A DNA stretch of 64,000 bases, taken from positions 49,215-113,214 of the forward strand of contig DASPXD010000231.1 in NCBI GenBank assembly GCA_035637435.1, read 5' to 3'. The position numbers and the translations under genes were made by a program. Positions 2,096-34,545 of this stretch are shown here, piece after piece. This DNA is from Gemmatimonadales bacterium (GTDB taxonomy: Bacteria; Gemmatimonadota; Gemmatimonadetes; Gemmatimonadales; GWC2-71-9). The notes below the pieces were generated by a model that did no database searches, was not told the DNA's origin, and saw only the letters and a list, made by a program, of their open reading frames with translations. Every line of letters begins with the position of its first letter. The stretch's first letter is position 1.

Positions 2096-3537
<1,442 letters not shown>

Positions 3538-3553
3538 TGGAATGTAGCGGGTT

Positions 3554-4796: not shown

Positions 4797-4800
4797 GTTC

Positions 4801-4829
4801 ATTGACAATCCCGACAAAACCATTAGGAT
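4801..4829 (+). promoter_or_regulatory. Candidate sigma70-type promoter and operator of the suf operon
   Basis: TTGACA (4801-4806), 16-nt spacer, TAGGAT (4823-4828) in an AT-rich gap. The inverted repeat AATCC(4806-4810)-N14-GGATT(4825-4829) spans the spacer. Confidence 0.35.
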
Positions 4830-4891
4830 TCCGAGCTAGGCCGTCGTTTTGATTGCCAAGCGTATGTCCGGTAACGACTTCCGGGAGCATC

Positions 4892-7091: not shown

Positions 7092-8401
7092 CGATGGCAG
7101 TGAAAACAGGCTCGGTAGAACGGCTGGTGGGCTCCTATCATGCGTGGGCAGCGAATGGCGCGTCCCGCGCTCCCGCCTGGCTCAAGGATCTCCGCGCAGG
7201 CGGCATCGCCCGCTTCAGTGAGCTCGGCTTCCCGAACATGAAGCAGGAGGCGTGGCGCTTCACGAGCGTCGCGCCGATTGCTGATGGCACCTTCGCGCTC
7301 GCCCATCCGCCCGCTCGCCTTCCGAGTCTCGTAGAGATCCAGCCGTTTCTGCTGGGCGACACCGGGCATCGTTTGGTCTTCGTCAATGGCTTCTATCAGC
7401 GCTCTCTGTCGACGGCCGTTGCCGACACGCTGCGTGTCCAGAGCCTGGCGGATGCGCTCGCCGAAGACCCGGATGCTGTCCGTGCGCATTTGTGCAGGTA
7501 TGCCGCGACGCAGGACCGGCCGTTCTGCGCGCTGAACACGGCATTCGTCGGTGAGGGCGCATTCGTCCACATACCGGCCAAGGTGTCGCTCGCGGATCCG
7601 ATCCAGCTGCTGTTCCTCGTCACCGACGAGAACCTCGTCATGCATCCCCGCAATCTCGTCGTGCTCGAGCGCGAAGCGCGCGCGAGCATCGTCGAGACGT
7701 ACGCGTCGCTGAACCACGCTCGCTACTGGACGAATACGGTCACCGAAGTGGTGGCCGGCGACGCCGCCCGGGTCGACTACCATCGCGTCCAGCGGGAGAG
7801 CCCGCGCGCCTATCACGTCGCCGCGACCGAGACGCATCAGGGGCGGGACAGCACCGTCAATCTGCACACGGTCGCGTTCGGCGCCGCACTCGCGCGGCAC
7901 GACCTCGGCAGCGTCATGGCGCGTCCGGGCGGCACGCTGATTCTCAACGGGTTGTATCTGCTCGCCGGCGAGCAGCACGCCGACCATCACACGACGATCG
8001 ATCATGCCGCCGACCACTGCGCAAGCCATGAGTACTTCAACGGCGTGCTCGACGAAAAGTCGCGCGGCGTGTTCACCGGGCGGATCATCGTGCGGCCCGG
8101 TGCGCAAAAGACGGACTCGAAGCAGACCAACAACAATCTCCTGCTGTCGGCCGACGCGCATGCCGACAGCCAGCCGCAGCTCGAGATCTATGCCGACGAC
8201 GTGAAGTGCACGCACGGCTCCACGGTGGGGCCGCTCGACCCGCGCGCGCTGTTCTATCTGCGCAGCCGCGGCGTGGGCGAGGATGAAGCGCGCCGGCTGC
8301 TCACCTACGGGTTCGCCGCCGAGATCCTCGGCCGGATGGAAGTCGCTCCGCTGCGCGCGCAGCTCGACGCCGTCGTGCGCGGCCGCCTGGCGGGACAATG
8401 A
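7088..8401 (+). CDS. sufD: Fe-S cluster assembly protein SufD
   Basis: 437 aa, SufB/SufD-family C-terminal half (for example LEIYADDVKCTHG). GTGA overlap with sufC. Confidence 0.9.
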   Translation: MTMAVKTGSVERLVGSYHAWAANGASRAPAWLKDLRAGGIARFSELGFPNMKQEAWRFTSVAPIADGTFALAHPPARLPSLVEIQPFLLGDTGHRLVFVNGFYQRSLSTAVADTLRVQSLADALAEDPDAVRAHLCRYAATQDRPFCALNTAFVGEGAFVHIPAKVSLADPIQLLFLVTDENLVMHPRNLVVLEREARASIVETYASLNHARYWTNTVTEVVAGDAARVDYHRVQRESPRAYHVAATETHQGRDSTVNLHTVAFGAALARHDLGSVMARPGGTLILNGLYLLAGEQHADHHTTIDHAADHCASHEYFNGVLDEKSRGVFTGRIIVRPGAQKTDSKQTNNNLLLSADAHADSQPQLEIYADDVKCTHGSTVGPLDPRALFYLRSRGVGEDEARRLLTYGFAAEILGRMEVAPLRAQLDAVVRGRLAGQ

Positions 8402-8868
8402 GCTCCGCCCCTCCCGATCTTGGCGAGCTGTATCAGCAGGTCATCCTCGACCACAACCGCAATCCGCGGAACTTCAAGCGCCTGGACGCGGCGAACCGCA
8501 AGGCGGAGGGCAACAACCCGCTGTGCGGCGACCGCATTCAACTGTTCGTGCAGGTCGACGGTGACACGATCAGCGACATCGGGTTCCAGATGCCGCAGGG
8601 TGCGGGTTGCGCGATCTCGAAAGCGTCGGCGTCGCTCATGACCGAGGCGGTGAAGGGTCAGAAGGTGGGTGATGCCGAAACGATGTTTCAGGCGGTTCGC
8701 GATATGCTCGCCGGCGGCGCGAATGCGCCGGGCAAGCTGGCGGCGTTTTCGGGCGTGCGGGCATTCCCGAGCCGCATCAAATGCGCGAATCTCGCGTGGC
8801 ACGCGCTGCACGCCGCGTTGCAGAACAGCGCGGAGCCGGTGACGACCGAATCGGCGCGGGACTTCTGA
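8398..8868 (+). CDS. sufU: SUF-type Fe-S scaffold / sulfur acceptor SufU (NifU-like N-terminal family)
   Basis: 156 aa with NPLCGD, GCAISKASASLMTE and KCANLAW cysteine motifs. ATGA overlap with sufD. Confidence 0.85.
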   Translation: MSSAPPDLGELYQQVILDHNRNPRNFKRLDAANRKAEGNNPLCGDRIQLFVQVDGDTISDIGFQMPQGAGCAISKASASLMTEAVKGQKVGDAETMFQAVRDMLAGGANAPGKLAAFSGVRAFPSRIKCANLAWHALHAALQNSAEPVTTESARDF

Positions 8869-10097
8869 TGCTCGATACCGCCCGGATTCGTCCTGACTTC
8901 CCCATTCTCGCGCAGCAGGAGAACGGTCACCGTCTCGTCTATCTCGACAACGCGGCAACCAGTCAGAAGCCGCGCAAAGTCATCGATGCGATCGTCCACT
9001 ACTACAACTTCCATAACGCGAACGTCCACCGCGGTGCCTACGCGCTCGCGGTCGAGGCGACAGAGGCGTACGAAGCGGCCCGTACCGCCGTAGCCCGCTT
9101 CGTCAACGCGTGGGCCCGCGAAGGGGTCGTGTTCACGCGGGGGACGACCGAATCGATCAATCTGGTCGCCGCTGCGTACGGCAGGACCAACGTGCGGCGC
9201 GGCGATACCGTGGTGGTGACGGCGATGGACCACCACTCCAACATCGTCCCGTGGCAGATCCTGTGTCAGGAAAAGGGCGCCACGCTCCGCATGGTCGAGA
9301 TCACGGAAGACGGGCGGATCGATCTGTCCGACTTCGGCCGGGCGCTCGAATCGAAGCCCAAGATCGTCGCGTTTCCCTCCGTCTCGAACTCGCTCGGCAC
9401 CGTCAACCCGGCCGCCCAGCTGAGCAAGCTGGCCCATGCGGCCGGCGCGGTGACCGTCGTGGACGGGGCGCAATCCACTCCACACCTTCGCGTGGACGTG
9501 CAGAGCCTGGATTGCGATTTCTACGCGCTGTCCGGTCACAAGATGCTCGGGCCGATGGGCAGCGGTGCGCTGATCGCGAAGCCGGCGCTGCTCGATGCGA
9601 TGCCGCCCTACCACGGCGGCGGAGAGATGATCGAACGGGTGTGGGACGACCGTTCCACCTGGAACAAGATTCCCCACAAGTTCGAAGGTGGCACGCCCAA
9701 CGTCGAAGCCGCGGTCGGACTCGGCGCCGCGATCGCCTACCTCGAGCAGCTGGGAATGGAGCGCGTGTCGGAGCACGAGCAGGAGCTCGCGCGTCTCGCG
9801 ATCGAGCGCCTGACGCAGATCGACGGCGTCACGGTCTACGGGCCGAAGGGCCACCGGGCGGGCGTGGTGCCGTTCACCTACGGCGACATTCACCCGCACG
9901 ATCTGGCGACCATCCTGGACCGGGACGGCGTCTGTATCCGCGCCGGTCATCACTGCACGCAGCCGCTCATGCGCCGGCTGGGCGTTGCCGCGACCGCGCG
10001 CGCGTCGTTCTACATCTATAACGATGTCGACGACATCGACGCGCTTGTCACGGCCGTTCGCAAAGCCGGCGAGCTGTTCGGGGTCCTAGCGTCGTAG
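8868..10097 (+). CDS. sufS: Cysteine desulfurase SufS (class V aminotransferase fold)
   Basis: Starts MLDTARIRPDFPIL at the ATG overlapping the sufU stop (TGATG). PLP lysine context SGHKMLGP and catalytic Cys context RAGHHCTQPL. The ORF-track start at 8781 is an upstream extension. Confidence 0.9.
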   Translation: MLDTARIRPDFPILAQQENGHRLVYLDNAATSQKPRKVIDAIVHYYNFHNANVHRGAYALAVEATEAYEAARTAVARFVNAWAREGVVFTRGTTESINLVAAAYGRTNVRRGDTVVVTAMDHHSNIVPWQILCQEKGATLRMVEITEDGRIDLSDFGRALESKPKIVAFPSVSNSLGTVNPAAQLSKLAHAAGAVTVVDGAQSTPHLRVDVQSLDCDFYALSGHKMLGPMGSGALIAKPALLDAMPPYHGGGEMIERVWDDRSTWNKIPHKFEGGTPNVEAAVGLGAAIAYLEQLGMERVSEHEQELARLAIERLTQIDGVTVYGPKGHRAGVVPFTYGDIHPHDLATILDRDGVCIRAGHHCTQPLMRRLGVAATARASFYIYNDVDDIDALVTAVRKAGELFGVLAS

Positions 10098-10120
10098 GCT
10101 CCTCTTCGTAGCTTCGGGGC

Positions 10121-11092
10121 ATGACCGAACCGGTCGTTGTCGATCGCGTCACAAAGAGATTCGCGGGCCACACCGCGGTCGATGCGCTTTCGTTGAGCGT
10201 CCCGGCCGGCCAGATCTATGGCCTGCTCGGCCCCAACGGCGCCGGCAAGACGACCACGCTGCGCATGATCATGGATATCTACGAGCCCGATGCGGGCGCC
10301 GTGCGGCTGTTCAACGACGTCGGCGGCGGGCGCACGCACTCGGCGCGCATCGGCTATCTGCCCGAAGAGCGCGGCCTCTACCCGCGCATGCGCGTCATCG
10401 ACGTGCTCGTCTTCCTGGCGGAGGCGAAGGGCGTCGCGCGCCGTGCGGCGCGCACGCGCGCGCTCGAATGGCTGGACCGGCTGGGCCTCGCCGACTGGCG
10501 CCTGCGCAAGGTGTCGGACTTATCGAAAGGCATGCAGCAGAAGGTGCAGTTCATTTCCACGATTCTGCACGACCCCGAGCTGGTGATTCTCGACGAGCCG
10601 TTCTCCGGTCTCGATCCCGTGAACTCGCAGGTGCTGCGCGACACCGTCGTCGATTATCGGCGGCGGGGCAAGACCGTCCTCTTTTCCACGCACATCATGG
10701 AGCACGCCGAGAAGCTATGCGACCGGCTGTGCATCATCGCGCGCGGCAAGAAGCTGATCGACGGCACGTTGGCGGAAGTGAAGCGGACCCATGGCGGCAA
10801 GCACGTCATCGTCGCGTTCGACGGCAGCCAGGGCGGCGCGCAGCAGATCTTCGCCGACCGCCGGCTCGTCGCCAGGATCCAGGACTTTGGCCAGCAGGCG
10901 GAGCTGGAGCTGGCGCCGGGCGCGGACGCTCAGGAGATCCTGCGGGCGCTGGTGCAGTCCGGCGCCCGGCTTGCGCATTTCGAGCTCGCCAGCCCATCGC
11001 TGCATAAGATCTTTGTCGATCTCGTTGGTCCGGAGGCCGCGACGGCGGCGGCCGTGCCGGGGACGCCGCAAGCGATCACTGCCAGTGCATAA
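10121..11092 (+). CDS. ABC transporter ATP-binding protein (ABC-2 / NatA-like)
   Basis: Walker A GPNGAGKTT, signature LSKGMQQK and Walker B LVILDEPFSGLD. Confidence 0.9.
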   Translation: MTEPVVVDRVTKRFAGHTAVDALSLSVPAGQIYGLLGPNGAGKTTTLRMIMDIYEPDAGAVRLFNDVGGGRTHSARIGYLPEERGLYPRMRVIDVLVFLAEAKGVARRAARTRALEWLDRLGLADWRLRKVSDLSKGMQQKVQFISTILHDPELVILDEPFSGLDPVNSQVLRDTVVDYRRRGKTVLFSTHIMEHAEKLCDRLCIIARGKKLIDGTLAEVKRTHGGKHVIVAFDGSQGGAQQIFADRRLVARIQDFGQQAELELAPGADAQEILRALVQSGARLAHFELASPSLHKIFVDLVGPEAATAAAVPGTPQAITASA

Positions 11093-12341
11093 AGTCTGGG
11101 CCGTGATCCGGCGCGAGTTCGTGGAACGCGTGCGCACCAGGTGGTTTTGGATCTCCGCGATCTTGGGGCCGGTCCTCTTCGGTGGTGTGATCGTCTACCA
11201 GATCATGCAGTCTCTTGGTGGCGCCGTGCGGGATATCGCCGTCGTGGACAGCACCACATCGGCGTTCGGGCAACGGGTCACCGAGGCCGTGGCGGCGAAC
11301 CCCAGCTTCCGAGTGACGCGCGTGCCTGCCGCGCCCGGTGTCGTCGACTCCCTGACCCGTCTCGTGGAATCCAAGCAGCTGAACGGTTTCCTGATCATTT
11401 CGAACGAGCTGAGCGAGACCGGCAAGGCTGAATACCGAGCTTCCAACCTGTCGCTTCAGACGGTTGAAGGCCTCGAGCGGTTGCTGAACAAGGTGGTGGT
11501 GAAAGTGAGGCTGGAGACACGGGGCGTGAATCCGGAAGTCGTGGATTGGGCGCAGGGAATCAGGATTACGCTCGATCAGAAGAAGATCGCACGGGGGCGG
11601 ACGACCACCGAGAGCGCGGGCGAGTCGTTCGTCCTCGCCTATGTAATGGCCGTGCTGCTATTCATGGCGATCCTGCTCTACGGTGTGAACGTCATGAGCT
11701 CGGTTCTGGAAGAAAAGACCACGCGCATCGTCGAGGTGCTCGTATCGTCGCTGCGGCCGTTTCAACTGATGCTGGGGAAAGTGGCCGGGGCGGGCGCGGT
11801 GTCCTTCTTCCAGTTCCTCATCTGGGGCGTCTCCGCACGGCTGCTCATCAGCCTGCGGGTACCCATTGCCCGTCTCCTGGGCGCGGATGCTTCCGCGGCT
11901 CAAGGCATCAAGCTGCCGCACATCCCCTTCGCGACGCTCTCTATCTTCATGGCGTTCTTCCTCGGCGGATTCCTGCTCTACTCGGCGATGTTCGCAGCGG
12001 TGGGGGCGATGTCCAGCAACGAGCAAGAGGCGCGCCAGGCGCAGCAGCCCGTGACCTACTTGCTGATGATCTCGTATCTCTCGATCATCGGACTCACGAA
12101 CGATCCGAGCTCGGCATTCGCCCGCACACTATCGATTGTGCCGTTTACGTCACCGATCGCGACGCCGGTCAGATGGACAGCCGGCAGCATGGGCGCCGGC
12201 GAATTGGCAGGATCGCTGGCGATGCTGGCGATTGGGATTGTCGCAGTTACGTGGATCGCAGCGCGGATCTACAGAGTGGGGATTCTGATGACGGGCAAGC
12301 GCCCGACGATGAAAGAGCTCGTGCGGTGGGTTAGGGCCTAA
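11085..12341 (+). CDS. ABC-2 family transporter permease (NatB-like)
   Basis: N-terminal TM helix, large extracytoplasmic loop, then several hydrophobic helices. In-frame GTG at 11085 overlaps the ATPase stop. The 516-aa ORF-track call is an upstream extension. Confidence 0.8.
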   Translation: MHKVWAVIRREFVERVRTRWFWISAILGPVLFGGVIVYQIMQSLGGAVRDIAVVDSTTSAFGQRVTEAVAANPSFRVTRVPAAPGVVDSLTRLVESKQLNGFLIISNELSETGKAEYRASNLSLQTVEGLERLLNKVVVKVRLETRGVNPEVVDWAQGIRITLDQKKIARGRTTTESAGESFVLAYVMAVLLFMAILLYGVNVMSSVLEEKTTRIVEVLVSSLRPFQLMLGKVAGAGAVSFFQFLIWGVSARLLISLRVPIARLLGADASAAQGIKLPHIPFATLSIFMAFFLGGFLLYSAMFAAVGAMSSNEQEARQAQQPVTYLLMISYLSIIGLTNDPSSAFARTLSIVPFTSPIATPVRWTAGSMGAGELAGSLAMLAIGIVAVTWIAARIYRVGILMTGKRPTMKELVRWVRA

Positions 12342-12457
12342 CTGCTTAGGACATGCAAAAACCTAGACGCACCGACGCACCGCGGGGTCGAGTAAACGGG
12401 ATACGGGACGAGATAAAATGATTCGGTGATTGGCCGTCCACCGGTTATCCTGGCGTC

Positions 12458-12835
12458 ATGCCTATCCATCACACCCTCAAAGCTTGGCAATTCGCCGAAA
12501 GATTGGCCGTCGAGTGCTCGAAAGCTGCTCAACGGTTCCCGGATTTCGAGCAGGAGAGACTCGCGGATCAACTTCGAAGAGCATCGTACAGCGTACCACT
12601 CAATATTGCCGAGGGGGCGACGAAAAAGGGGACGAGGGATTACCGCAAGTATCTCGATATAGCGTGGGGTTCACTCGCCGAAGTACAAACCGGACTCACC
12701 CTGGCTCGTGACATCGGCTATCTCCGGCCGGCGGAGTACGGACGCTTAGAGGCCCTAGCAACGGAAACCAGCAAGACATTGTTTGGTTTGCTTCGAAAAA
12801 TCAGTCAGGCGGCCGATCGTCCCAAACCCCGTTGA
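12458..12835 (+). CDS. Four-helix-bundle protein (23S rRNA intervening-sequence protein / Avd family)
   Basis: 125 aa with the family pattern ...QLRRASYSVPLNIAEGATKKGTRDYRKYLDIAWGSLAEVQT.L.LA. GC is clearly lower than in the neighbouring genes. Confidence 0.85.
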   Translation: MPIHHTLKAWQFAERLAVECSKAAQRFPDFEQERLADQLRRASYSVPLNIAEGATKKGTRDYRKYLDIAWGSLAEVQTGLTLARDIGYLRPAEYGRLEALATETSKTLFGLLRKISQAADRPKPR

Positions 12836-12898
12836 CTGTGACCCGCGGCTGCGTCTGTAGCCTAGCCTTTGCAGGTCCTGAGTTAGTAGTTTCTCGCC

Positions 12899-14770
12899 AT
12901 GCCTGACTATGACGTAATCGTCGTTGGCGGCGGCCACGCCGGCACCGAAGCCGCTGCCATGTCGGCTCGCCTCGGCGCACGGACTCTGCTGCTCACTTCG
13001 GTCCTGGATACGATCGGGCAGATGTCCTGCAATCCCGCCATCGGCGGCATTGCCAAGGGTACCGTCGTCCGCGAGGTCGATGCTCTCGGTGGCCTCATGG
13101 GCCGTGCCGCCGATCGGGCCACCATTCAATTCCGCATGCTCAATCGCTCCAAGGGCCCCGCCGTCTGGGCTCCGCGCGCCCAGGCCGATCGGACGCTCTA
13201 CCGTCGCGCCGTGCGCGCATTGCTCGAGCAATTCCCTTCCCTCGAGCTGACGCAGGGCATGGTCACAAATCTGCTCCTCGACGAGCGAGGGACTCAGATC
13301 ACCGGCGTCGAAACGGGAGACGGCCGTCGCTTCGACGCGCGCGCCGTCATCATCACGGCCGGCACCTTCCTGCGCGGTCGCATCCACCTTGGCACCGATA
13401 CCCAAATCCCCGCGGGTCGGGCGGGCGACGCGCCCTCCGTTCAGATGGCGCAAGTCATTGCGAATATTGGACTTACAGTCGCGCGCTTCAAGACCGGCAC
13501 GCCGCCGCGCATCGATGGCCGCTCCGTCAACTGGAGTAAGGTCGAGCGTCAGGACGGCGACGGCGACGAGTTTCGATTCTCCTTCCATGAGCGAGTGGAG
13601 CGGCCACGGCAGGTGCCCTGCTGGATCACGTGGGCTGGCGAAGAGGTGAAGGAAATCATCCAGCAGCATCTGAAGGAATCTGCGTTGTACGGCGGCGCGA
13701 TCAGCGGGCGCGGGCCGCGCTATTGTCCCTCGGTCGAAGACAAGATCGTGAAGTTCCCGGCGGCCAAGCGCCACCAGATCTTTCTCGAGCCGGAGGGGCT
13801 CGACACGACGGAGTTGTACGTGAACGGGCTCTCCACTTCCCTGCCCGTAGCCGTCCAGCTCGAGTTCCTGCACGCCGTCCCCGGCCTCGAGCGCGCGAAG
13901 ATGACGCGCCCCGGGTATGCGATCGAGTACGACTACTATCCCCCCACCCAGCTCACGCCGTGGCTCGAGGTGAAGACGGTCGAGCACCTGTTCTTCGCGG
14001 GACAGATCAACGGGACGACGGGTTACGAGGAAGCGGCGGGACAAGGCGTCATCGCCGGCATCAATGCGGTGCGGCGGATCCGCGGCGCCGAGCCGGTCGT
14101 GCTCGGTCGGGACGACGCCTACATCGGTGTGCTGGTCGACGACCTCGTGACCCGCGGCGTTGACGAGCCATACCGGCTCTTCACGTCGCGCTCCGAGTTC
14201 CGGCTGCTGCTGCGCCAGGACAATGCGCTGCGCCGGCTGCTGCCGCTCGCCGATCGCCTTGGCCTGCTGTCTGATGGCGAGCTCCGAGCGGCGGAATGCC
14301 GGCTCGAGGCGGAGGAGTCGGTATTGCACCTGGCGCGTGAGACGACTATCACGCCGGCTCAGGCCGGCGCGGCGCTCGCGGCAAGCGGCACTGGTTTGAC
14401 GGAGACCGACCGCATCGCCGTCGTCGCGAAGCGACCGGGTGTCTCACTCGGCGCGTTGCTCACGGCGGCTGGGGTCGGGGGTGGCGCGCCCGCGGATGCC
14501 GTTCTCGCCGCGGAGATCGAGATCAAGTATGACGGGTACCTGGCACGCGAGCGCGACGCTGCGGCGCGACTGGCCGAGCTGGCGTCGTTCACCCTGCCGG
14601 CTGACATGCCCTACCTCGAGCTGCGCACCTTGGCCACGGAAGCTCGGCAAAAGCTCGATCGCGTGCGTCCCACATCACTCGCGCAAGCGGCGCGGGTTCC
14701 TGGCGTCACGCCCAGCGATCTTCACAACCTCGTGTTGGAGGCGACGCGCTGGCGTCGCCGAGTGGCTTAG
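12899..14770 (+). CDS. mnmG: tRNA uridine 5-carboxymethylaminomethyl modification enzyme MnmG (GidA)
   Basis: 623 aa with FAD motif YDVIVVGGGHAGTEAA and MnmG-like sequence throughout. Confidence 0.95.
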   Translation: MPDYDVIVVGGGHAGTEAAAMSARLGARTLLLTSVLDTIGQMSCNPAIGGIAKGTVVREVDALGGLMGRAADRATIQFRMLNRSKGPAVWAPRAQADRTLYRRAVRALLEQFPSLELTQGMVTNLLLDERGTQITGVETGDGRRFDARAVIITAGTFLRGRIHLGTDTQIPAGRAGDAPSVQMAQVIANIGLTVARFKTGTPPRIDGRSVNWSKVERQDGDGDEFRFSFHERVERPRQVPCWITWAGEEVKEIIQQHLKESALYGGAISGRGPRYCPSVEDKIVKFPAAKRHQIFLEPEGLDTTELYVNGLSTSLPVAVQLEFLHAVPGLERAKMTRPGYAIEYDYYPPTQLTPWLEVKTVEHLFFAGQINGTTGYEEAAGQGVIAGINAVRRIRGAEPVVLGRDDAYIGVLVDDLVTRGVDEPYRLFTSRSEFRLLLRQDNALRRLLPLADRLGLLSDGELRAAECRLEAEESVLHLARETTITPAQAGAALAASGTGLTETDRIAVVAKRPGVSLGALLTAAGVGGGAPADAVLAAEIEIKYDGYLARERDAAARLAELASFTLPADMPYLELRTLATEARQKLDRVRPTSLAQAARVPGVTPSDLHNLVLEATRWRRRVA

Positions 14771-14785
14771 GGCGCGCATCGTTGC

Positions 14786-14801
14786 AGTTTCACGTGAAAC
14801 T
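14786..14801. promoter_or_regulatory. parS centromere-like site 1
   Basis: AGTTTCACGTGAAACT is a perfect 16-bp palindrome with the canonical parS core GTTTCACGTGAAAC. Confidence 0.85.
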
Positions 14802-14811
14802 TACGCTCTTC

Positions 14812-14827
14812 CGTTTCACGTGAAACG
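14812..14827. promoter_or_regulatory. parS centromere-like site 2
   Basis: CGTTTCACGTGAAACG is a perfect 16-bp palindrome, centred 26 bp from site 1. Confidence 0.85.
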
Positions 14828-14890
14828 AACGTATATTGGACGCGCCATAATTATTTAGCTGCATAAATCATTATAAATCAACGAGTTATA

Positions 14891-15718
14891 ATGTCGCGTG
14901 TAATCGCTATCGCGAACCAGAAAGGCGGCGTCGGTAAAACGACGACGGCCGTGAACCTCGCGGCCTCTCTGGCGATCGCCGAGCGCAAGACGCTGCTCAT
15001 TGATGCGGATCCGCAGGGCAACTCGACGAGCGGCGTCGGGATCGAGCGCGACCGCATCCGTCATTCGCTCTATGACGCGCTCATCGACGGCGCTGCGTTG
15101 ACCCAGTCGCGTTTCCCGCACGTGCACTTTCCTTATCTCGACGTCGTTCCCGCGACTCAGGACCTGGTCGGCGCCGAGCTGGAGCTCGTCAACCAGCGCT
15201 CGCGCGAGACCCGCATGCGCGATGCGCTGCAGGATGTCCGCGGCGAGTACACCTACGTCATCATCGATTGCCCGCCGTCGCTTGGCCTCATCACGCTGAA
15301 CATGCTGACCGCGGCCGACAGCGTCGTCATCCCGATCCAGTGCGAGTACTACGCGCTCGAAGGACTCTCGCAGCTCCTCAACACCGTAAAGTTGGTGCAG
15401 CGCAATTTCAATCCCACGCTCGCCATCGAAGGCGTGTTGCTGACGATGTACGACGCCCGCCTCAATCTCTGCAAGCAGGTCGCTGAGGAAGCGAAGGAGT
15501 ATTTCGGCGGCCGGATGTTCGCCGTGACCATTCCGCGGAACGTGCGCCTAGCGGAAGCGCCAAGCTTTGGAAAGCCGATCGTGCTGTATGACGTGCAGTC
15601 GGTGGGAGCGAAGAGCTACCTGGCGGTCGCACAGGAGCTGATTCGCCGGGTCGAGCAGGACGCTCCACCGTCCCCAAGCCTCCCCGCAATTGAACAGGTG
15701 CCGGAGGTACCCGCATGA
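14891..15718 (+). CDS. parA: Chromosome partitioning ATPase ParA (Soj)
   Basis: Deviant Walker [12 protein letters not shown] and ParA-like sequence throughout. Confidence 0.95.
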
Positions 15719-16608
15719 GACAAACTGCGGCAGGAGGACGCCGCCTCGGGCGGGGGCTCGAAGCGCTGCTCGGGCCGACCCGGGAGGAAGCAGAACGGGA
15801 AGGGAGTTTGGTCGAGCTGCCCATCAAGGACATCCGGCCCAACCCGTTCCAACCCCGGAAGACCGTCGACCCCACCGCGCTGGAGGAGCTGGTCTCATCG
15901 ATCAAGCAGGCGGGATTGCTGCAACCGATCGTGGTGCGCCGCGCGAATGGTGGGGCGACGGGATTCGAGCTGATCGCCGGCGAGCGGCGGCTGCGGGCCT
16001 GCCAGCAGCTGGGATGGGAACGCATCCCTGCCGTACAGCGTGACGCTGATGACCGTACGCTCCTCACGCTGGCGCTGATCGAGAACCTGCAGCGCGACGA
16101 CCTGTCGCCCGTAGACGAAGCGCGCGGGTACGAGCGGCTCATTGCGGAGTTCAAGCTGGCCCAGCAGGATGTCGCCGACGCCGTGGGCCGCGACCGCTCG
16201 ACCGTCGCCAACGCGCTGCGTCTCCTGAAGCTTCCCGAAGACGTGTTGCAGCTGCTGCACGAAGGCCAGCTGTCGGTTGGTCACGCACGCGCGCTGCTCG
16301 CGATCGAGGATTCGCGCGTCGTCACGAACCTCGCGCGCGAGGCGGTTGCCCAAGGCCTGTCGGTGCGCGAAGTGGAGGATCGGGTGCGCGGCGGGCGCGC
16401 ACCCGAGCGCCGTCCGCGCATGAAGCGCGGCATGGGCGCCGCCCCCGAAGTCCGCAGGGTCGAGGACGCACTGCGTCGCCGTCTCGGGACCGATGTACGC
16501 GTTAGCTTGCGCGCGAAGGGCAAAGGGCAGATTCACGTGTCGTTCTACTCGAACGACGATCTCGCGCGGTTGCTCGAGCTGATCCTCGGCGCGCCATTCG
16601 ACGGATGA
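15715..16608 (+). CDS. parB: Chromosome partitioning protein ParB (Spo0J)
   Basis: ParB boxes [18 protein letters not shown] and [16 protein letters not shown] overlap with parA. Confidence 0.95.
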
Positions 16609-27698: not shown

Positions 27699-27904
27699 AG
27701 GCCCATCGTTTCGCGGCGCCAGCGCGCGAAGTTCACGACATCGTCGACGGGCGGGATCGCCTGCTCGTCGCCATACGCCGTGAACATCCGCCACTGCATG
27801 TAGTCGCGGGGTGGGACCGGCAAAAAAGGCGGGCGCCGGTACCAGTCGCGCGCGCGGAAACTCCACGCGAGTCGCAACAGGTCGACAGCGAGTCGCGGGC
27901 GCAC
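27695..27904 (-). CDS. Hypothetical protein (69 aa), translationally coupled to queG
   Basis: High GC3. Its TGA stop overlaps the queG GTG (GTGA). No family recognised. Confidence 0.5.
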   Translation of the reverse strand: MRPRLAVDLLRLAWSFRARDWYRRPPFLPVPPRDYMQWRMFTAYGDEQAIPPVDDVVNFARWRRETMGL

Positions 27905-27984
27905 GAGCGACCTCAGCGCTAAACGTAGATAAAGTGCGGGCCAACTCGCTATACGCCGTATTCCTTCTGTATATTGACCGGCCT

Positions 27985-29154
27985 ATGACGCTCGCCAGCA
28001 GCGTGAAGCCGCGCGCGCTTGGGCTCGCCAGATACCGCGGCGAGTTCCCGATTTTCAAGGACCGCATCTACTTGAACACCTGCTCGCTGGGCGCGCTGGG
28101 CGAGCGGTCTCGCCGCAAGGTAGCCGAATTCCTGGACCAGTGGCAGAGCCGCGGCGCCGCCGCGTGGTACGACGTCTGGTGGGAGGCCCTGGGCGATCTG
28201 CGGGCGCGGTACGGCCGCATCGTCAATGCCCGGCCCGGTGAGGTCGCGCTGGCGCCGAGCATTTCCGTCGCGCTGAGCACGGTGGCGGAGTCGCTCGACT
28301 ACACGCGCCGGCCCAGAGTGGTCATCACGTCGCTCGATTTCCCGACCGTTGCGTACCAGTGGCTCGCGAAAGCCCCGCGGGGTGTCGAGCTCGTGGTCGT
28401 CGAAAGCCCCGACAAGATCAGTGTGCCGGTCGAGGCGATTGCGCGCGCCGTCGACGATCGCACGGCCCTGGTCGCGACCTCTCACGTGTATTTCACGAGC
28501 GGAGCGATTCAGGACATCAAGCGCGTCGCGGAGGTCGCGCACGCGCGCGGCGCGCTGTGTCTCATCGATGCCTACCAATCGGTCGGCCAGATTCCCGTCG
28601 ACGTGCAGGACGCCGGTGTGGACGCCCTCGTCGCCGGCGGCCTCAAGTGGCTGCTGGGCGGGCCGGGGATCGTCTTCCTGTATATGCAGCAGGCGCTGGC
28701 ACGGCGGCTCGAGCCGGGCATTGCCGGGTGGTTCGGGCAGCGCGAGCAATTCAGCTTCGACCCCAGAGCGTTGACGTTCCACGACGACACGCGCCGCTTC
28801 GAGCTGGGCACGCCGCCGCTCGCCGCGGTCTACGCGCAGCTCGGCGGTCTCGAGTACATCGAGGAGATCGGCGTTCCCGCGATCCGCGAGGCGACCGCCG
28901 CGCTGACCGAGGATCTGATCGCCACGGCGCGCGCCGCCGGATTCACGCCCAAGGTCGCCGCCGAGCCGGAGCGCCGCTCGGCAATCGTAATGATTCCCAT
29001 GCCGGATCCCGCGGCGAGTGTGCGGCACCTGGCGGCGGGCGGTGTGATCGCCGACAGCCGGCCGGGACACGTCCGGTTCTCGCCCTTCTTCTATAACGTG
29101 CAGGATGACCATGTCAGAGCAACCGAGCGCCTCGCCACGCAGCCCGCTCACTGA
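27985..29154 (+). CDS. Aminotransferase class V-fold PLP-dependent enzyme (kynureninase / desulfurase-like)
   Basis: Starts MTLASSVKPRALG at the ATG at 27985. PLP-lysine context GGLKWLLGGPG. IYLNTCSLG near the N-terminus. Confidence 0.8.
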   Translation: MTLASSVKPRALGLARYRGEFPIFKDRIYLNTCSLGALGERSRRKVAEFLDQWQSRGAAAWYDVWWEALGDLRARYGRIVNARPGEVALAPSISVALSTVAESLDYTRRPRVVITSLDFPTVAYQWLAKAPRGVELVVVESPDKISVPVEAIARAVDDRTALVATSHVYFTSGAIQDIKRVAEVAHARGALCLIDAYQSVGQIPVDVQDAGVDALVAGGLKWLLGGPGIVFLYMQQALARRLEPGIAGWFGQREQFSFDPRALTFHDDTRRFELGTPPLAAVYAQLGGLEYIEEIGVPAIREATAALTEDLIATARAAGFTPKVAAEPERRSAIVMIPMPDPAASVRHLAAGGVIADSRPGHVRFSPFFYNVQDDHVRATERLATQPAH

Positions 29155-29881
29155 GGACGAGCAACTTCTCATCCCGCCGCAGGTCGTTCCGATCGAGCGG
29201 CGGGCCTCCTTCACGAGCACCGATCCGTGGCGCGTGCTGCGCATCATGGGGGAGTTCGTCGAGGGGTTCGACACGCTGTCCGACGTGCGCAACGCGGTCA
29301 CGATCTTCGGCTCGGCGCGCACGCCGGAGAGTGATCCCTACTACGAGGCGGCACATAAAACCGCCCGCATGCTCGCGAAAGAGGGGTTCGCGATCATCAC
29401 CGGTGGTGGGCCGGGCATCATGGAAGCGGCGAATCGCGGCGCCAAGGAAGGAGGCGGCCTGTCGATCGGCTGTAACATCGAGCTGCCCTTCGAGCAGGGC
29501 ACGAACCAGTGGGTCGAGCGGTCGATCAATTTCCGCTACTTCTTCGTCCGCAAGACGATGTTCGTGAAGTACTCGACCGCGTTCATCACCTTCCCCGGAG
29601 GCTATGGCACGATGGACGAGCTGTTCGAGGCGCTGACCCTCGTGCAAACGGGCAAGGTGAAGCAATTCCCCGTCGTGCTGTTTGGCCGCGCCTACTGGGG
29701 CGGGCTCGCCGACTGGCTGAAGCAGCGCGTGGCCGGCGAAGGAAAGATCTCGCCGGAGGACTTGAACCTCTTCCTCGTGACGGACGATCCCAAGGAAGCG
29801 CTCGGCTGGATCGTCGACGCGCGCGAGCGCCGCACGCGGGCGTTCCGCGCGATGAGCCAGATCGCCCAGGCCACGCGATGA
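29105..29881 (+). CDS. LOG family protein (TIGR00730-type nucleotide 5'-monophosphate nucleosidase)
   Basis: [21 protein letters not shown] and [12 protein letters not shown] motifs. Overlaps the upstream gene by 50 nt (44 nt if the start is 29111). Confidence 0.9.
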
Positions 29882-31014
29882 CGCAAAACGAATTCCTGCG
29901 CGGGCAGCGTATCAATCCGAAGCCGGTGAGCGGGAAGGAAACCGTCGCCGATCTCGTCGATAATGCGTTTCTCGCGTACAACGCGGGCCGCCTGGCGGAG
30001 GGCTGCCGGCTGTTTGCCGAGCGCATGCTGGAAGACGAGGTGACCGTGGGGATGAGCCTCACCGGCGCGATGACGCCGGCGGGGCTCGGGATGTCGACGA
30101 TCATCCCGCTCATCGAAGCGGGGTTCGTCGACTGGATCGTGTCGACGGGCGCCAACCTCTACCACGACGCCCACTTTGGGCTCGGCATGGCGATGCACCG
30201 CGGCACGCCGTTCGCCGACGACGTCGTGCTGCGCGAGGAAGGCGTCGTACGGATCTACGACATCTTCTTCGATTACGACGTCCTGCTCTCCACCGATCGC
30301 TTCGTGCGCGAAGTCTCCGCCCGGGCGGAATTTCAGCGTCCGATGAGCACGGCGGAGTATCACTTCATGCTCGGCGGCTACGTGCTGGAGCGCGAAAAGG
30401 CGCTCGGGTTGTCGCGTAAGTCGGTGCTCGGCGCCGCGCACGCCGCCGCCGTCCCGATTTACACGTCCTCTCCCGGCGATTCGTCCATCGGCATGAACGT
30501 GGCCGAGCAGGCGCTCTCGGGCAGCCAGCTCCGGTTCGACGTCAGCGCGGACGTGAACGAGACCTCTTCCATCGTTTTCTCGGCGAAGGTGCACGGCGGC
30601 AAGAGCGGCGTGCTGATCATCGGCGGCGGCAGTCCCAAGAACTTCGTGCTCCAGACGGAGCCGCAGATTCAGGAAGTGCTCGGGATCAGCGAGAAAGGCC
30701 ACGATTACTACCTGCAGCTCACGGACGCACGCCCCGACACCGGCGGACTTTCCGGTGCGACGCCATCGGAGGCGGTGAGCTGGGGCAAGGTCGATCCCGA
30801 CAAGCTTCCCGGCACCGTCGTGGCGTACCTCGACAACACCGTGGCCTTCCCGATTCTCGCGGCGTACGCGTTGGCGCGGCGCAAGCCCCGCAAGTTGAAG
30901 CGTCTCTATGACAAGCGCGCGGAGATGATGCGCGAGCTGACCGACTCCTATCTCGAGGCAAAGGCGGATCGCGACGCGCGCGCCGAGGCAGCAACTGGCG
31001 GCCGCGCGACCTGA
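29878..31014 (+). CDS. Deoxyhypusine synthase family protein
   Basis: 378 aa starting [25 protein letters not shown] and GGGSPKNF motifs, plus the catalytic-lysine context [13 protein letters not shown] overlap with the LOG gene. Confidence 0.9.
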
Positions 31015-31018: not shown

Positions 31019-32542
31019 TTGCAGTCCCCCCCCCTCCCCCCTCCCGCTACCGCGACCAGGGCATACGCCGCCTACGTCCTGGGGTTGCTCACCGTGGTCA
31101 ACCTTCTCAACTACCTCGACCGCAACGTCGTCTACGCGGTGTTCGAGCCGATCAAGCGCGATCTCCAGCTTTCGGACGCGCAGCTGGGCTGGCTCGGCTC
31201 GGCCTACATCGTCGTGCTGTCGCTCGCCGCATTGCCGCTCGGAGTGATCGGAGACCTGCGCTCGCGGCGCAGCGTCATTACGCTGGGCGTTGCGGTGTGG
31301 AGTGCATCCACCGCGGCGGGCGGCTTCGTCAGAAAGTTCTGGCAGCTGTTCACGTGCCGCGCGCTGGTGGGCTTCGGCGAGGCGGGCTATGCACCCGCCT
31401 CGCAGGCGATCATCGCCCAGTACTATCGTGGCAAGCGGCGCGCGTTCGCGATCGGCGTCTACTCGGTGGGGATGGCGCTCGGCGGCGTGCTCGGCATCTG
31501 GTTCGGCGGCGTGATTGCCGAGCGCTACGGCTGGCGCTGGGCGTTCATCTGGATGGGGTTCCCCGGCCTCGTGCTCGCTTTGCTCGCGTCACGGTTGCGC
31601 GAGCTCGATCGCAAGCCGCCACCGCCGGTCCGCGACATTCTGCGCAGCTGGTGGCAACATGGCATGCACGGCGTCACGCGCTATGTCGCGCCGCTGGCCA
31701 TCTGCGCCGGCGTCGGCGCCGGGCTCGCGGGTATCCTGGCGTTGTTCGAAGGCATTCCATCGCAGATCGGCACGGCGCTGTTCGGTGTCGGTGTCAGCAT
31801 CGGGATCGCCTGGACCGTGTACCGGCTGGTGCCGCTCGCCGTGAGGCGAACGACCGAAGCGGGCGCGGTCGCGGCGGGCGCGTTCGACGACTTCCAGGAC
31901 GCCGCCATCCTCGTGCTGCGTACGCCGACGCTGATCTGGATATTTCTGGGCGGAGCGATGGTCACGTTCGCCGTGAATGGGCTGGTCGCCTGGGCGGCGG
32001 CATTCATGCAGCGCACGCACGGGATGTCGATCGCCAACGTCGGCGCGCAATTCGGGCTCTGGGCGCTCGGCGGCGGAGTGCTGGGCGCCCTGAGCGGCGG
32101 AAGGCTCGGAGACCGCGTGCAACAGTATTGGCATGGGGGCCGCGTGCTCGTCTCGGGCGCCGGTTTCGTACTCGGTGGGCCGGTCTGCGCGGCCTTGTTG
32201 TTGGTCGAGGATCTGCGCTGGTTCGCGCCGCTGATTATGGCGACGTATTTCCTGTACACCTGGTACAACGGGCCCCTGGCCGCCGTGATCCTCGACGTCG
32301 TACCGCCGGCGGTCCAGGCATCGGTGCTGGGCGCGTTCGTGTTGTTCTCGCACCTGGCCGGGGACGCCCTCGCGCCGCCGCTGATCGGCTATCTGTCGGA
32401 CCGGACCGGCAATCTACGGACGGCGATGCTGCTGCTGCCCGCCGTCGGCCTGCTCGGCGGCCTGGTGATTCTCATCGCGTTACGGACGGTGGCGCGCGAC
32501 ATGCGGCGCGTGACCGCGCTCGACATCCATGTGTCCGGCTGA
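31019..32542 (+). CDS. MFS transporter (Spinster-like)
   Basis: 507 aa with NLLNYLDRNV near TM1 and about 12 TM segments. Apparent TTG start 5 nt after the DHS-like stop. A C9/C6 tract covers codons 3-8. Confidence 0.8.
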   Translation: MQSPPLPPPATATRAYAAYVLGLLTVVNLLNYLDRNVVYAVFEPIKRDLQLSDAQLGWLGSAYIVVLSLAALPLGVIGDLRSRRSVITLGVAVWSASTAAGGFVRKFWQLFTCRALVGFGEAGYAPASQAIIAQYYRGKRRAFAIGVYSVGMALGGVLGIWFGGVIAERYGWRWAFIWMGFPGLVLALLASRLRELDRKPPPPVRDILRSWWQHGMHGVTRYVAPLAICAGVGAGLAGILALFEGIPSQIGTALFGVGVSIGIAWTVYRLVPLAVRRTTEAGAVAAGAFDDFQDAAILVLRTPTLIWIFLGGAMVTFAVNGLVAWAAAFMQRTHGMSIANVGAQFGLWALGGGVLGALSGGRLGDRVQQYWHGGRVLVSGAGFVLGGPVCAALLLVEDLRWFAPLIMATYFLYTWYNGPLAAVILDVVPPAVQASVLGAFVLFSHLAGDALAPPLIGYLSDRTGNLRTAMLLLPAVGLLGGLVILIALRTVARDMRRVTALDIHVSG

Positions 32543-32557: not shown

Positions 32558-33556
32558 ATGAAGATCGCGGTGATCTTCGATTCGCTGCATCCCGAGTGGG
32601 AAGACGCGGCCTTCAAGCGTGAAGTCGAGGAGAAAGCCGAAGAGGCGGAGTACGATGTCGCGCGCGCGCTGCTGGCGGGCGGCCACGACGTCCTCATGAT
32701 CGGCATCGGCGACGACGTCGCGCCATTACTCGCCAAACTGGCGGATTTCCAGCCCAAGCTGGTGTTCAACGGCTGCGAGGGCTTTCGCAAGAACGCGCGC
32801 CACGAATACGCGGTCGCGGCGCTGCTCGACATGTACGGCTATCGCTACACCGGATCGTCGCCGACCGCGTTGCTCGTCGCCCGCAACAAGTCGCTCACCA
32901 AAAAGATCCTGGCCTACCATGGCATCCGGGTGCCGGCGTTTGCGGAATTCCACGACGGCGACGAGCTGGTGCGGCCGTCGGAGCTGCGCTTTCCCCTGAT
33001 CGTGAAGCCGCTGCTCGAGGACGCGTCGATCGGCATCGCCCAGGCGTCGGTTGTCGAGGACGACGCGTCCCTGAAGCAGCGCGTCGAGTTCATCCACACG
33101 AAATACCATCAGGCCGCGATCGTGGAAGAGCTGGTCGAAGGGCGCGAGGTCTACGTCGGGCTGATCGGCAACGACGAGCTCGAAGTGCTGCCGCTGACGG
33201 AGATGACCTTCGGCGAGCCGGAGACCGCCGAGCACCGCATCGCGACGTACAAGGCGAAATGGGACGAGGATTACCGCAAGAAGAAGAAGATCAAGAACGT
33301 GTTCGCCAAGGGTGTGTCGGAGCCGTTGACGCGCCGCATCGGCGAGATCTGCAGCACCGCGTTCCACGCGCTGTGGCTGCAGGACTATGGCCGCGTCGAC
33401 GTCCGGCTGGCGCATGACGACGAGGTCTACGTGCTCGAGGTGAACCCCAACCCGTTCATCGCCGCCGAGCATGAACTGGCGGAGGCCGCCGAGAAAGCGG
33501 GCCTCAAGTACAACGCCTTCATTCAGCGGATCGTGGACGAGGCCATGGCCCGGTGA
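32558..33556 (+). CDS. ATP-grasp ligase, D-alanine--D-alanine ligase-like family
   Basis: 332 aa starting MKIAVIFDS, with PLIVKPLLEDASIG and VLEVNPNP ATP-grasp motifs. Confidence 0.8.
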   Translation: MKIAVIFDSLHPEWEDAAFKREVEEKAEEAEYDVARALLAGGHDVLMIGIGDDVAPLLAKLADFQPKLVFNGCEGFRKNARHEYAVAALLDMYGYRYTGSSPTALLVARNKSLTKKILAYHGIRVPAFAEFHDGDELVRPSELRFPLIVKPLLEDASIGIAQASVVEDDASLKQRVEFIHTKYHQAAIVEELVEGREVYVGLIGNDELEVLPLTEMTFGEPETAEHRIATYKAKWDEDYRKKKKIKNVFAKGVSEPLTRRIGEICSTAFHALWLQDYGRVDVRLAHDDEVYVLEVNPNPFIAAEHELAEAAEKAGLKYNAFIQRIVDEAMAR

Positions 33557-34545
33557 GCCGCCGCGAGGTCCCCACCCCGGAGCTGCGCTGCCCCACGTGC
33601 CACACCGAGCTGGAGCGGTTCTGGAGTTACTGCCCGAGCTGCAGCCGGCGGCTGGAATGGCCCGACACCCAGCGCGAGACCGGCGCCGAGTGCGCGTACT
33701 GCGGGTGGATGGTATCGGACGCGTCGTCGTTCTGTCCCTGGTGCGGGCGCAACATCAAGGACGAGGATTCCAGCGAGGAGCCGCTCAAGGCGCCGAAGGG
33801 ATTCAAATTCCACGCCCGCTGCGATTGGGGTTGCGGCGGCGGCGTCATGTACCCGATGCGCTTCTGCCCCTGGTGCGGGCGCGCGCAATCGTGGCGCTAC
33901 GATCACTTCCAGAACGCCTGCCCGCATTGCGACCGGGGCGTGGACGACTGGATGGCGACGTGCCCGTGGTGCGGCGAGGACGCGACCGGCCGCGATCTGA
34001 TCCCGCGTGCCCTGCGCCGGGCGCGGCGCTTGCTCATTGTGGCGCGCCTGCGCGACTGGCATTACCGCGTGGTATTGCGGCCGGGCGTATCGGGCGTCGC
34101 GCCGCGGGCGCCGAAGGTGATCGAGCTGGACCGCCGCTTCGTGACCGGCAAGCGCCGCCGCGATGAGATCTCGTGGAGCATGCTCACCGGCCTGTTGCTG
34201 CACGAGCTCGGCCACTCATTCCTCTATCATCACTGGGCGTGGACGCGCACCGGCCGGTTTCGCCGCGCCTTCGGCGAGGTGCGCAAAGCCTATCGCGTCG
34301 CCGACGAGCACTGGGTGGATTTCGAGCGGCGCCGCATTGCGACGACACTGACCGACTACGTCAGTGCCTATGCGGCGACCCACCCGCAGGAGGATTTTGC
34401 GGAGACGTTCCGGTTTTACGTCGCGCGGCGCGGGCGGCTGCGGGAGCTGTTCGCGGAGTTCGGCCGCAAGCGCAAGGGCGTGAGGGTGTATGAGAAATTT
34501 TTGGTCTTGCATGACTTCGTGCGAAGTTTGAGAGGCTGGAAGTAG
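33553..34545 (+). CDS. Four zinc ribbons followed by a putative HExxH zinc-metallopeptidase domain
   Basis: Ribbons CPTCH..x..CPSC, CAYCG..x..CPWC, CDWGCG..x..CPWC and CPHCD..x..CPWC, then LLHELGHSFLYHHW. GTGA overlap with the ATP-grasp gene. Confidence 0.65.
   Translation: MSRREVPTPELRCPTCHTELERFWSYCPSCSRRLEWPDTQRETGAECAYCGWMVSDASSFCPWCGRNIKDEDSSEEPLKAPKGFKFHARCDWGCGGGVMYPMRFCPWCGRAQSWRYDHFQNACPHCDRGVDDWMATCPWCGEDATGRDLIPRALRRARRLLIVARLRDWHYRVVLRPGVSGVAPRAPKVIELDRRFVTGKRRRDEISWSMLTGLLLHELGHSFLYHHWAWTRTGRFRRAFGEVRKAYRVADEHWVDFERRRIATTLTDYVSAYAATHPQEDFAETFRFYVARRGRLRELFAEFGRKRKGVRVYEKFLVLHDFVRSLRGWK

Follow-up and report, generated by a model that had tools for sequence, protein, structure and literature searches.

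The LOG-family gene and the deoxyhypusine synthase (DHS) homologue that overlap in the stretch of Gemmatimonadales DNA analysed here (64 kb, hereafter the window) most probably belong to a phylum-specific operon which joins two independent housekeeping enzymes of already known types through inherited gene order, with no new pathway behind it. The DHS homologue can now be placed in the SpeY homospermidine pathway, and its pairing with LOG is a gene order specific to Gemmatimonadota, kept throughout this phylum and found nowhere else, and thus looks inherited.

Organisation of the LOG-SpeY locus

The LOG gene (positions 29105-29881, plus strand; 258 aa, with an alternative ATG start at 29111) is followed by the SpeY-type DHS homologue (29878-31014, plus strand; 378 aa), and the span 29105-31014 delimited by the sequence-only reading corresponds exactly to these two genes together. 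The SpeY start codon ATG occupies 29878-29880 and the LOG stop codon TGA 29879-29881, so that the ATGA stop/start overlap (29878-29881, plus strand), read directly from the sequence, is exact, as that reading had described it. Its assignment of the two genes to the LOG and DHS families is borne out by profile matches (PF03641, 1.7e-34, and TIGR00730 for LOG; PF01916, 9.3e-68, for the DHS homologue), and the motifs it quoted are present in the translations, namely both LOG motifs and the retained catalytic-lysine context SEAVSWGK with the predicted catalytic Lys304. The tight junction is conserved among the Gemmatimonadales: with some start codons assigned by us, the 4-nt overlap recurs in 31 of 79 loci and the gap is at most 30 nt in 74 of 79. 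Within the window, such an overlap is not unusual, and 4-nt overlaps were also found for SufC/SufD, SufD/NifU-like, ParA/ParB and ATP-grasp/Zn-ribbon.

The pair lies in a compact co-directional gene run. The gene preceding LOG encodes a PLP enzyme of class V (fold type I) with a distant resemblance to kynureninases or cysteine desulfurases (27811-29154, plus strand; PF00266, 7.2e-36; best PDB match the kynureninase 1qz9, 1.2e-34; below every NCBIfam cut-off), and its 3' end runs 44-50 nt into LOG; its true start probably lies near 27982, as judged from the onset of homology and the overlap with queG. Directly 3' of SpeY, after a nominal 4-nt gap, follows an MFS transporter gene (31019-32542, plus strand; PF07690, 1.3e-51), and then a D-Ala-D-Ala-ligase-like ATP-grasp gene (32558-33556, plus strand; PF07478, 1.3e-27; below the Ddl NCBIfam cut-offs) and a gene for a zinc-ribbon/Peptidase_Mx protein (33553-34545, plus strand; PF12773 and PF15887), the latter two overlapping by 4 nt. 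Every junction from the PLP enzyme to the Zn-ribbon gene is either an overlap or a gap of no more than 15 nt. By synteny, LOG has the PLP enzyme gene as its neighbour in the majority of Gemmatimonadales loci and also in the metagenome locus L172, while the ATP-grasp and Zn-ribbon genes form a tail of the run that is present only in closer relatives. The MFS gene is kept 3' of SpeY in most Gemmatimonadales loci only and was not found next to SpeY in other lineages. Counts from a promoter and terminator scan equalled the shuffled expectation.

The LOG protein

Besides PF03641 (119.3 bits, cut-off 27), the LOG protein matched PF18306 and TIGR00730 (150.5 bits, cut-off 96.35). Among solved structures it scored 274 bits with 5zi9 and 262 bits with 5wq3, both deposited as cytokinin riboside 5'-monophosphate phosphoribohydrolase, and 230 bits with 1wek, deposited as hypothetical protein TT1465, as against just 41-51 bits with the short type I LOGs 5its, 2a33, 3sbx and 1t35; the type I and type II labels of these structures follow the C. 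glutamicum LOG literature. The signature motifs GGGxGxM...R and PGGxGTxxE are intact and aligned identically with 5zi9, 5wq3 and 1wek. The PpnN nucleosidase model NF038390 gave 32.7 bits (cut-off 450), confined to a 46-residue stretch and without the 450-residue architecture. Judged by its sequence, the gene encodes a typical type II LOG, and nothing in its unchanged catalytic motifs or in the residues conserved along the whole printed alignment points to neofunctionalisation.

The DHS homologue belongs to the SpeY/CdmS family

The sequence-only reading had left the DHS homologue functionally open. Its score exceeds the curated threshold of the NCBIfam equivalog NF001980 (548.3 bits, cut-off 450, profile positions 1-349 of 350), and we identify it from profile and residue comparisons as a member of the known bacterial SpeY/CdmS family. 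NCBI labels the NF001980 family only as "homospermidine biosynthesis protein" and models the Thermus-type synthase separately; that second model, NF002699, was not passed (162.4 bits, cut-off 500). Nor was any of the archaeal DHS equivalogs TIGR00321, NF002006, NF002630, NF002294 and NF003052, which gave 92.7-226.6 bits against cut-offs of 304.25-434. Experiments on enzymes from several phyla have shown that SpeY/CdmS condenses two molecules of agmatine to bis-guanidino-homospermidine (PMC10981699, PMC13625781), and the phylogenetically diverse SpeYs tested so far all use agmatine and all yield the bis-guanidino product (PMC13625781).

The active-site residues were compared with Thermus CdmS through the positions described in PMC10981699, where the pocket comprises Lys299, Glu293 and Leu286, and where human Asp316 stands 13 residues before the catalytic lysine. 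Lys304 of the window protein aligns with the catalytic lysine in archaeal DHS structures, and E298 (-6 from K304) and L291 (-13) have the same offsets as Glu293 and Leu286 have to Lys299 in CdmS. The position equivalent to human Asp243 is occupied by the hydrophobic Met206, and by Phe in the Nostoc and Sphingomonas homologues. GGGSPKNF is a motif that the window protein shares with every bacterial SpeY-type sequence in the comparison.

Clustering of all flanking ORFs of the metagenome loci revealed the neighbours of a sister clade of the same SpeY family, 52-63% identical, among them Orn/Arg-decarboxylase-like genes of the alanine-racemase fold (AR-fold) in 38 of 80 metagenome loci, agmatine-deiminase-like genes (PF04371) in 12 and arginase-family genes in 5. 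A protein in which AdoMet_dc is fused to SpeY likewise supports the SpeY assignment. The five conserved motifs compared are essentially identical across the two clades, and K304, E298, L291, M206 and GGGSPKNF are identical. The clade of the window protein, which we call "orphan", comprises SpeYs of Gemmatimonadota, Acidobacteriota and Binataceae-like and Bacteroidota-like lineages and has no polyamine neighbours: no decarboxylase, agmatinase or deiminase gene adjoined any of its members in the loci examined, and neither the window nor any Gemmatimonadota locus examined yielded a gene that would produce agmatine or remove guanidino groups. A large SpeY clade thus stands without neighbouring agmatine-pathway genes. 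We know of no assayed member of this clade, and its nearest characterised relatives perhaps share no more than ~30-40% identity with it.

Distribution of the LOG-SpeY adjacency

The initial homologue search and genome scan gave Gemmatimonadales relatives only, and loci across phyla were found with a profile built from representatives of 50% clusters. LOG adjoins SpeY in 79 of 80 Gemmatimonadales loci, in both Longimicrobiaceae loci and in the Gemmatimonadales-like metagenome locus L172. In two Gemmatimonadales loci SpeY is kept without LOG as its direct neighbour, a PQQ dehydrogenase gene lying between the two in L048 and an NDH-2 gene replacing LOG in L073. Between Gemmatimonadales and Longimicrobiaceae, the order and strand of the pair are kept and all other flanking genes differ; persistence across two classes despite different flanks suggests selection for co-expression and goes beyond recent shared ancestry alone.

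Outside Gemmatimonadota, no LOG adjoined SpeY in ~86 distinct loci sampled: the adjacency is lacking from the loci of Blastocatellia, Binataceae, Bacteroidota and three further lineages, and of 80 metagenomic SpeY-family loci 79 lack it. Among plasmids, only 13 distant SpeY matches were found, none with LOG nearby, and the SpeY copies on Nostoc and Sphingomonas plasmids have no LOG neighbour. Other lineages have conserved SpeY neighbours of their own, such as adh_short/Hc1 in Bacteroidota and Inositol_P in the Binataceae-like loci. In Thermus, the type II LOG TT1465 does not adjoin CdmS; a distance of 3.3 kb separates it from the arginine decarboxylase gene, and metK and prs are in the vicinity. 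LOG-SpeY fusions were not seen among the best 150 family representatives, in which the long proteins are an AdoMet_dc-SpeY fusion (P0262), intein-containing SpeYs and mis-joined fragments. The "fixed pairing" proposed from the sequence therefore holds within Gemmatimonadota and breaks down in every other lineage sampled, where linkage of LOG and DHS homologues was looked for and not found, and where the recurrent SpeY neighbours are polyamine genes, as would be expected. On the terms set by the sequence-only reading itself this counts as a refutation: the homologue falls among enzymes of the homospermidine pathway that have no LOG in their neighbourhoods.

Proposed function and alternative explanations

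We infer that LOG and SpeY of Gemmatimonadota are co-transcribed and often translationally coupled, the ATGA overlap permitting termination-reinitiation. By analogy with characterised relatives, SpeY would join two molecules of agmatine by means of a tightly bound NAD and an imine intermediate at Lys304, releasing N1,N9-bis(guanidino)homospermidine and ammonia. The former would be turned into homospermidine by a ureohydrolase or an iminohydrolase/amidohydrolase with its gene at another site of the genome. LOG, to judge from its solved and assayed relatives, would split the N-glycosidic bond of nucleoside 5'-monophosphates into base and ribose 5-phosphate. The overlap would reflect the compact PLP enzyme-LOG-SpeY-MFS-ATP-grasp-Zn-ribbon operon and probably not a shared pathway; our analysis found no evidence for a common LOG-DHS pathway, and in the literature searched, "deoxyhypusine synthase" and "lonely guy" never occurred in the same paper, nor did any paper link Gemmatimonadetes with sym-homospermidine. 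LOG was also considered as a stand-in for the missing ureohydrolase, a role that its expected chemistry would not allow.

Two of the alternatives concern the DHS homologue. The DS fold, the NAD-binding-type motifs, the conserved catalytic lysine and a window without polyamine partner genes would all suit a true deoxyhypusine synthase that modifies EF-P or a lysine of another bacterial protein and makes no polyamine, but we consider this extremely improbable: all archaeal DHS equivalogs failed and the homospermidine-biosynthesis equivalog was passed, the archaeal GGG(V)PKHH is replaced by the SpeY-type motif, the equivalent of human Asp316 is Leu291 as in the agmatine-coupling CdmS, close relatives lie within decarboxylase, deiminase and arginase-family clusters, and every SpeY tested makes the agmatine dimer (PMC13625781). 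The missing decarboxylase, agmatinase and deiminase neighbours, together with a non-specific NCBI family name and a separately modelled Thermus-type synthase, could also mean that the SpeYs of the "orphan" clade use another amine, e.g. putrescine or spermidine, and reach homospermidine or another polyamine without a bis-guanidino intermediate. This seems to us very improbable in view of the five motifs, CdmS pocket residues included, that are shared almost unchanged with the decarboxylase-linked sister clade, and of the use of agmatine by all diverse SpeYs tested so far (PMC13625781).

The remaining alternative concerns LOG, which might be functionally coupled to SpeY in Gemmatimonadota by supplying, removing or sensing a metabolite (e.g. 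a nucleotide or an NAD-derived compound), by acting on a modified (e.g. ribosylated) polyamine intermediate or by forming a complex with SpeY. The preserved order and strand of the pair amid changing neighbours in both classes and the usually very tight junction argue for such coupling, and the short distance between the type II LOG and the arginine decarboxylase gene in Thermus is a weak hint in the same direction. We nevertheless find it very unlikely, as none of the SpeY loci sampled from other lineages has LOG alongside, the LOG is highly conserved with unchanged catalytic motifs and 274 bits to 5zi9, the SpeY reaction uses up no nucleotide (PMC10981699), SpeY has been kept in two Gemmatimonadales lineages where the pair is broken up, and no paper was found that names both proteins together. 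The stronger form, in which the two have been a true functional pair since the origin of the phylum and LOG activity (turnover of nucleotides or NAD-related compounds, or of a substrate not yet recognised) is required for or regulates homospermidine synthesis, is very unlikely; if it were true, type II LOGs, which are poorly understood in bacteria, may gain a physiological role in polyamine metabolism. The pair is deeply conserved within this one phylum. Under the preferred explanation, an inherited operon of two independent enzymes, the significance of the pairing as it stands is small.

Comparison with known systems

Like the SpeY/CdmS enzymes, the window protein has the PF01916 fold, the SWGK lysine, Glu at -6, Leu at -13, a hydrophobic residue in place of human Asp243 and the PKNF motif. 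It shares ~29-34% identity with the copies on Sphingomonas and Nostoc plasmids, differs from the Thermus-type synthase in its low score on NF002699 (162 bits, cut-off 500), and departs from the known SpeY/CdmS context in that it adjoins LOG and has no polyamine partner genes. With archaeal DHS (1e-20 to 7cmc and 8put) and human DHS (1rlz, 2.7e-10) it shares the fold, the NAD-site motifs and the catalytic lysine. The differences from DHS lie in the change of KHH to KNF and of the Asp316 equivalent to Leu, in the bacterial host and in a family context of polyamine synthesis: Haloferax DHS has GGGVPKHH, and 7cmc and 8put have KH, where the window SpeY has GGGSPKNF. The first His of the DHS motif GGGxxKHH is equivalent to human His288.

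Bacterial homospermidine synthase (HSS; putrescine-dependent, PDB 4TVB type) has the same expected end product, homospermidine, and an NAD prosthetic group (PMC4725965, PMC13625781). It is not homologous to the window SpeY, which matches the DS family only, and the HSS and SpeY pathways are mutually exclusive (PMC13625781).

The window LOG resembles the type II LOGs of C. glutamicum (5wq3), 5zi9 and Thermus 1wek over ~200 residues (230-274 bits). It has both motifs, and a conserved DPWRVLRI helix precedes its core, as is the case in the long type II LOGs. Unlike these proteins, it carries a variable extra N-terminal stretch of ~33 residues, and it shares its predicted operon with SpeY, whereas the Thermus LOG does not.

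Gene pair and genomic surroundings

The window has a G+C content of 66%, and its nearest relatives are all Gemmatimonadales metagenome-assembled genomes. Within it, an ORF of 258 aa (29105-29881, +) matches PF03641 (1.7e-34) and the LOG family TIGR00730 (150.5 bits, cut-off 96.35) and contains [13 protein letters not shown] and [12 protein letters not shown], while a second ORF of 378 aa (29878-31014, +) matches the deoxyhypusine synthase (DHS) family PF01916 (9.3e-68) and carries SEAVSWGK. The ATG of the DHS homologue (29878-29880) overlaps the TGA stop of LOG (29879-29881). The two genes, their coordinates, the ATGA overlap and the lysine motif, all described in a sequence-only reading, were borne out by ORF positions, Pfam/NCBIfam matches and motif reading. 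By itself the overlap is unremarkable, and 4-nt overlaps also occur in the window at SufC/SufD, SufD/NifU-like and ParA/ParB. Both genes belong to a co-directional run with junctions that are overlaps or gaps of at most 15 nt. A class-V PLP enzyme (27811-29154, +) comes first, then LOG and the DHS homologue; these are followed by genes for an MFS transporter (31019-32542, +), an ATP-grasp ligase (32558-33556, +) and, last, a zinc-ribbon/Peptidase_Mx protein (33553-34545, +).

Pseudomonas kynureninase (1qz9, 1.2e-34) is the best PDB match to the PLP enzyme, which falls under every NCBIfam cut-off and whose gene runs 44-50 nt past the start of LOG at its 3' end; the true start of this gene is probably near 27982, because the annotated N-terminus overlaps the opposite-strand queG. 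The ATP-grasp gene is D-Ala-D-Ala-ligase-like, under all Ddl equivalog cut-offs, and overlaps by 4 nt the next gene, whose product combines a Peptidase_Mx metallopeptidase domain with several zinc ribbons (together 32558-34545, +), a pair kept together in closer Gemmatimonadales relatives. At 13-27 kb upstream of LOG (2096-16608) the window encodes ThiC, MnmG/GidA, ParA, ParB and all of a Suf cluster (SufB, SufC, SufD, NifU-like, SufS), thus the locus is probably in a housekeeping neighbourhood near the chromosomal origin region.

Comparison with solved structures places the LOG gene as a typical member of the long (type II) group: it scores 274 bits against 5zi9, 262 bits against 5wq3 and 230 bits against Thermus TT1465 (1wek), but 41-51 bits against several short LOGs. 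Its two catalytic motifs are unaltered and no sign of altered function was seen in its sequence. Identity with PpnN was rejected (32.7 bits, cut-off 450).

The DHS homologue as a SpeY protein

The DHS homologue scored 548.3 bits against the NCBIfam equivalog NF001980 “homospermidine biosynthesis protein” (cut-off 450) and stayed under all cut-offs of the archaeal DHS equivalogs (92.7-226.6 bits, cut-offs 304.25-434) and under that of the Thermus-type model NF002699 (162.4 bits, cut-off 500). Among solved structures, archaeal DHS come closest, with no better than E = 1e-20. The SWGK lysine aligns with their catalytic lysine. GGGVPKHH of the aligned archaeal DHS reads GGGSPKNF in the window protein. 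That the window protein is a protein-modifying DHS is very improbable. In the bacterial SpeY/CdmS family, Thermus CdmS joins two agmatines into the bis-guanidino homospermidine “caldomycin”, which a ureohydrolase converts to homospermidine (PMC10981699). SpeY homologues of diverse phyla all perform the same agmatine coupling, unlike eukaryotic DHS and unrelated bacterial HSS (PMC13625781). In CdmS, Lys299 is catalytic, Glu293 is the guanidino ligand, and Phe204 and Leu286 replace human Asp243 and Asp316 (PMC10981699); judged by offset or alignment, their counterparts in the window protein are K304, E298 (-6), M206 and L291 (-13), respectively.

Among 1.84 billion cluster representatives searched, 350 relatives reached E <= 1e-30, and the top 150 include no LOG fusion. 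One relative (P0262, 581 aa) joins an S-adenosylmethionine-decarboxylase-fold domain (7-118) to a SpeY domain (259-554), which fits the SpeD-like arginine decarboxylases adjoining speY, S-adenosylmethionine-decarboxylase-fold homologues described as neofunctionalised (PMC13625781). Two others, P0121 (645 aa) and P0137 (725 aa), carry an intein that follows roughly residue 294 (numbered as in the window protein), in or beside the active-site segment [16 protein letters not shown]; Intein_splicing is all that the P0121 intein has, and the P0137 intein contains homing-endonuclease parts (HNH, NUMOD3) as well.

Scanning metagenome contigs with a profile yielded 80 SpeY-family loci (52-72% identity to the window protein), of which all flanking ORFs were clustered and the recurrent families scanned. 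Three neighbour families emerged: an alanine-racemase-fold (AR-fold) Orn/Arg decarboxylase of about 377 aa (38/80), a PF04371 agmatine-deiminase-like protein (12/80) and an arginase-family protein (5/80). An NJ tree separated a polyamine-linked clade from an orphan clade without polyamine neighbours, comprising Gemmatimonadales, Longimicrobiaceae, Blastocatellia, Binataceae-like and Bacteroidota-like sequences. Loci of the former (many of L097-L159, e.g. L118:4009-7473 and L112) are compact homospermidine modules, with the AR-fold decarboxylase flanking SpeY on the same strand, often a divergent PF04371 gene and less often an arginase-family gene. Neither the 64-kb window nor any Gemmatimonadota locus examined contains decarboxylase, agmatinase or deiminase genes; a 1044-aa ORF about 28 kb from SpeY (59042-62176, +), with an MFS-like membrane region (13-393) and a spermine/spermidine-synthase-like domain (540-691), gives the window a second feature related to polyamines. 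Since five compared motifs are essentially identical in both clades, we infer that the window protein would catalyse the SpeY reaction. That the orphan clade, from which we know of no assayed enzyme, uses another amine substrate is quite unlikely.

Distribution of the LOG-SpeY pair

LOG lies directly 5' of SpeY in 79 of 80 Gemmatimonadales genomes, down to 75% SpeY and 61% LOG identity, with the flanking PLP enzyme, MFS, ATP-grasp and zinc-ribbon genes variably present. The junction is a 4-nt overlap in 31/79 and a gap of at most 30 nt in 74/79. The pair is broken and SpeY retained in two Gemmatimonadales lineages: in one (L048) the genes are 2 kb apart, with an opposite-strand cytochrome-c-fused PQQ dehydrogenase (3901-5913, -) between them, and in the other (L073) an NDH-2-type oxidoreductase (4361-5623, -) takes the place of LOG, which is absent within 6 kb of SpeY. 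In two loci of Longimicrobiaceae, from the other class of the phylum (taxon assigned via named neighbouring proteins), LOG is upstream of SpeY at gaps of 122-152 nt and every other neighbour differs.

Among the lineages sampled outside Gemmatimonadota, LOG was never found beside SpeY, including Blastocatellia, Binataceae and Binataceae-like loci (L081, L083, L090), Bacteroidota and a related locus (L084, L091), loci L088 and L092, and the Nostoc and Sphingomonas plasmid copies. It was missing from 79/80 metagenome loci, the exception (L172) also having the Gemmatimonadales-type PLP enzyme and QueG. Conserved SpeY neighbours form an own set in each lineage; on the Sphingomonas plasmid an AR-fold PLP decarboxylase is upstream, as described in a related sphingomonad (PMC13625781). 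In Thermus thermophilus, TT1465 is not beside CdmS and lies between Asp/Glu racemase and MutS2. On a T. thermophilus-type contig (L177:2793-8654) the gene for biosynthetic arginine decarboxylase lies 3.3 kb upstream of it, and metK and PRPP synthetase are close by, a proximity that is probably coincidental.

Significance of the pairing

Because the pairing is kept in two classes with otherwise unrelated flanks, it suggests selection for co-expression, the only observation that speaks for a functional link. However, the absence of the pair everywhere else sampled, a LOG sequence unchanged from typical type II forms, the SpeY reaction, which includes no nucleotide chemistry, and the retention of SpeY in both natural splits all weigh against a shared pathway. 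The DHS homologue groups with homospermidine-pathway enzymes whose neighbourhoods lack LOG, an outcome that the sequence-only reading had itself named as counting against its view. We give a true functional module a low probability, and there is a slight chance that type II LOG has a real polyamine-related role in Gemmatimonadota. Most likely, two independent enzymes of known type came together in a compact operon early in Gemmatimonadota and were kept there. Our literature search found no paper naming LOG together with DHS. The synteny appears to be undescribed, as a lineage-specific arrangement without mechanistic support, and the LOG and SpeY genes themselves are new members of families already known.
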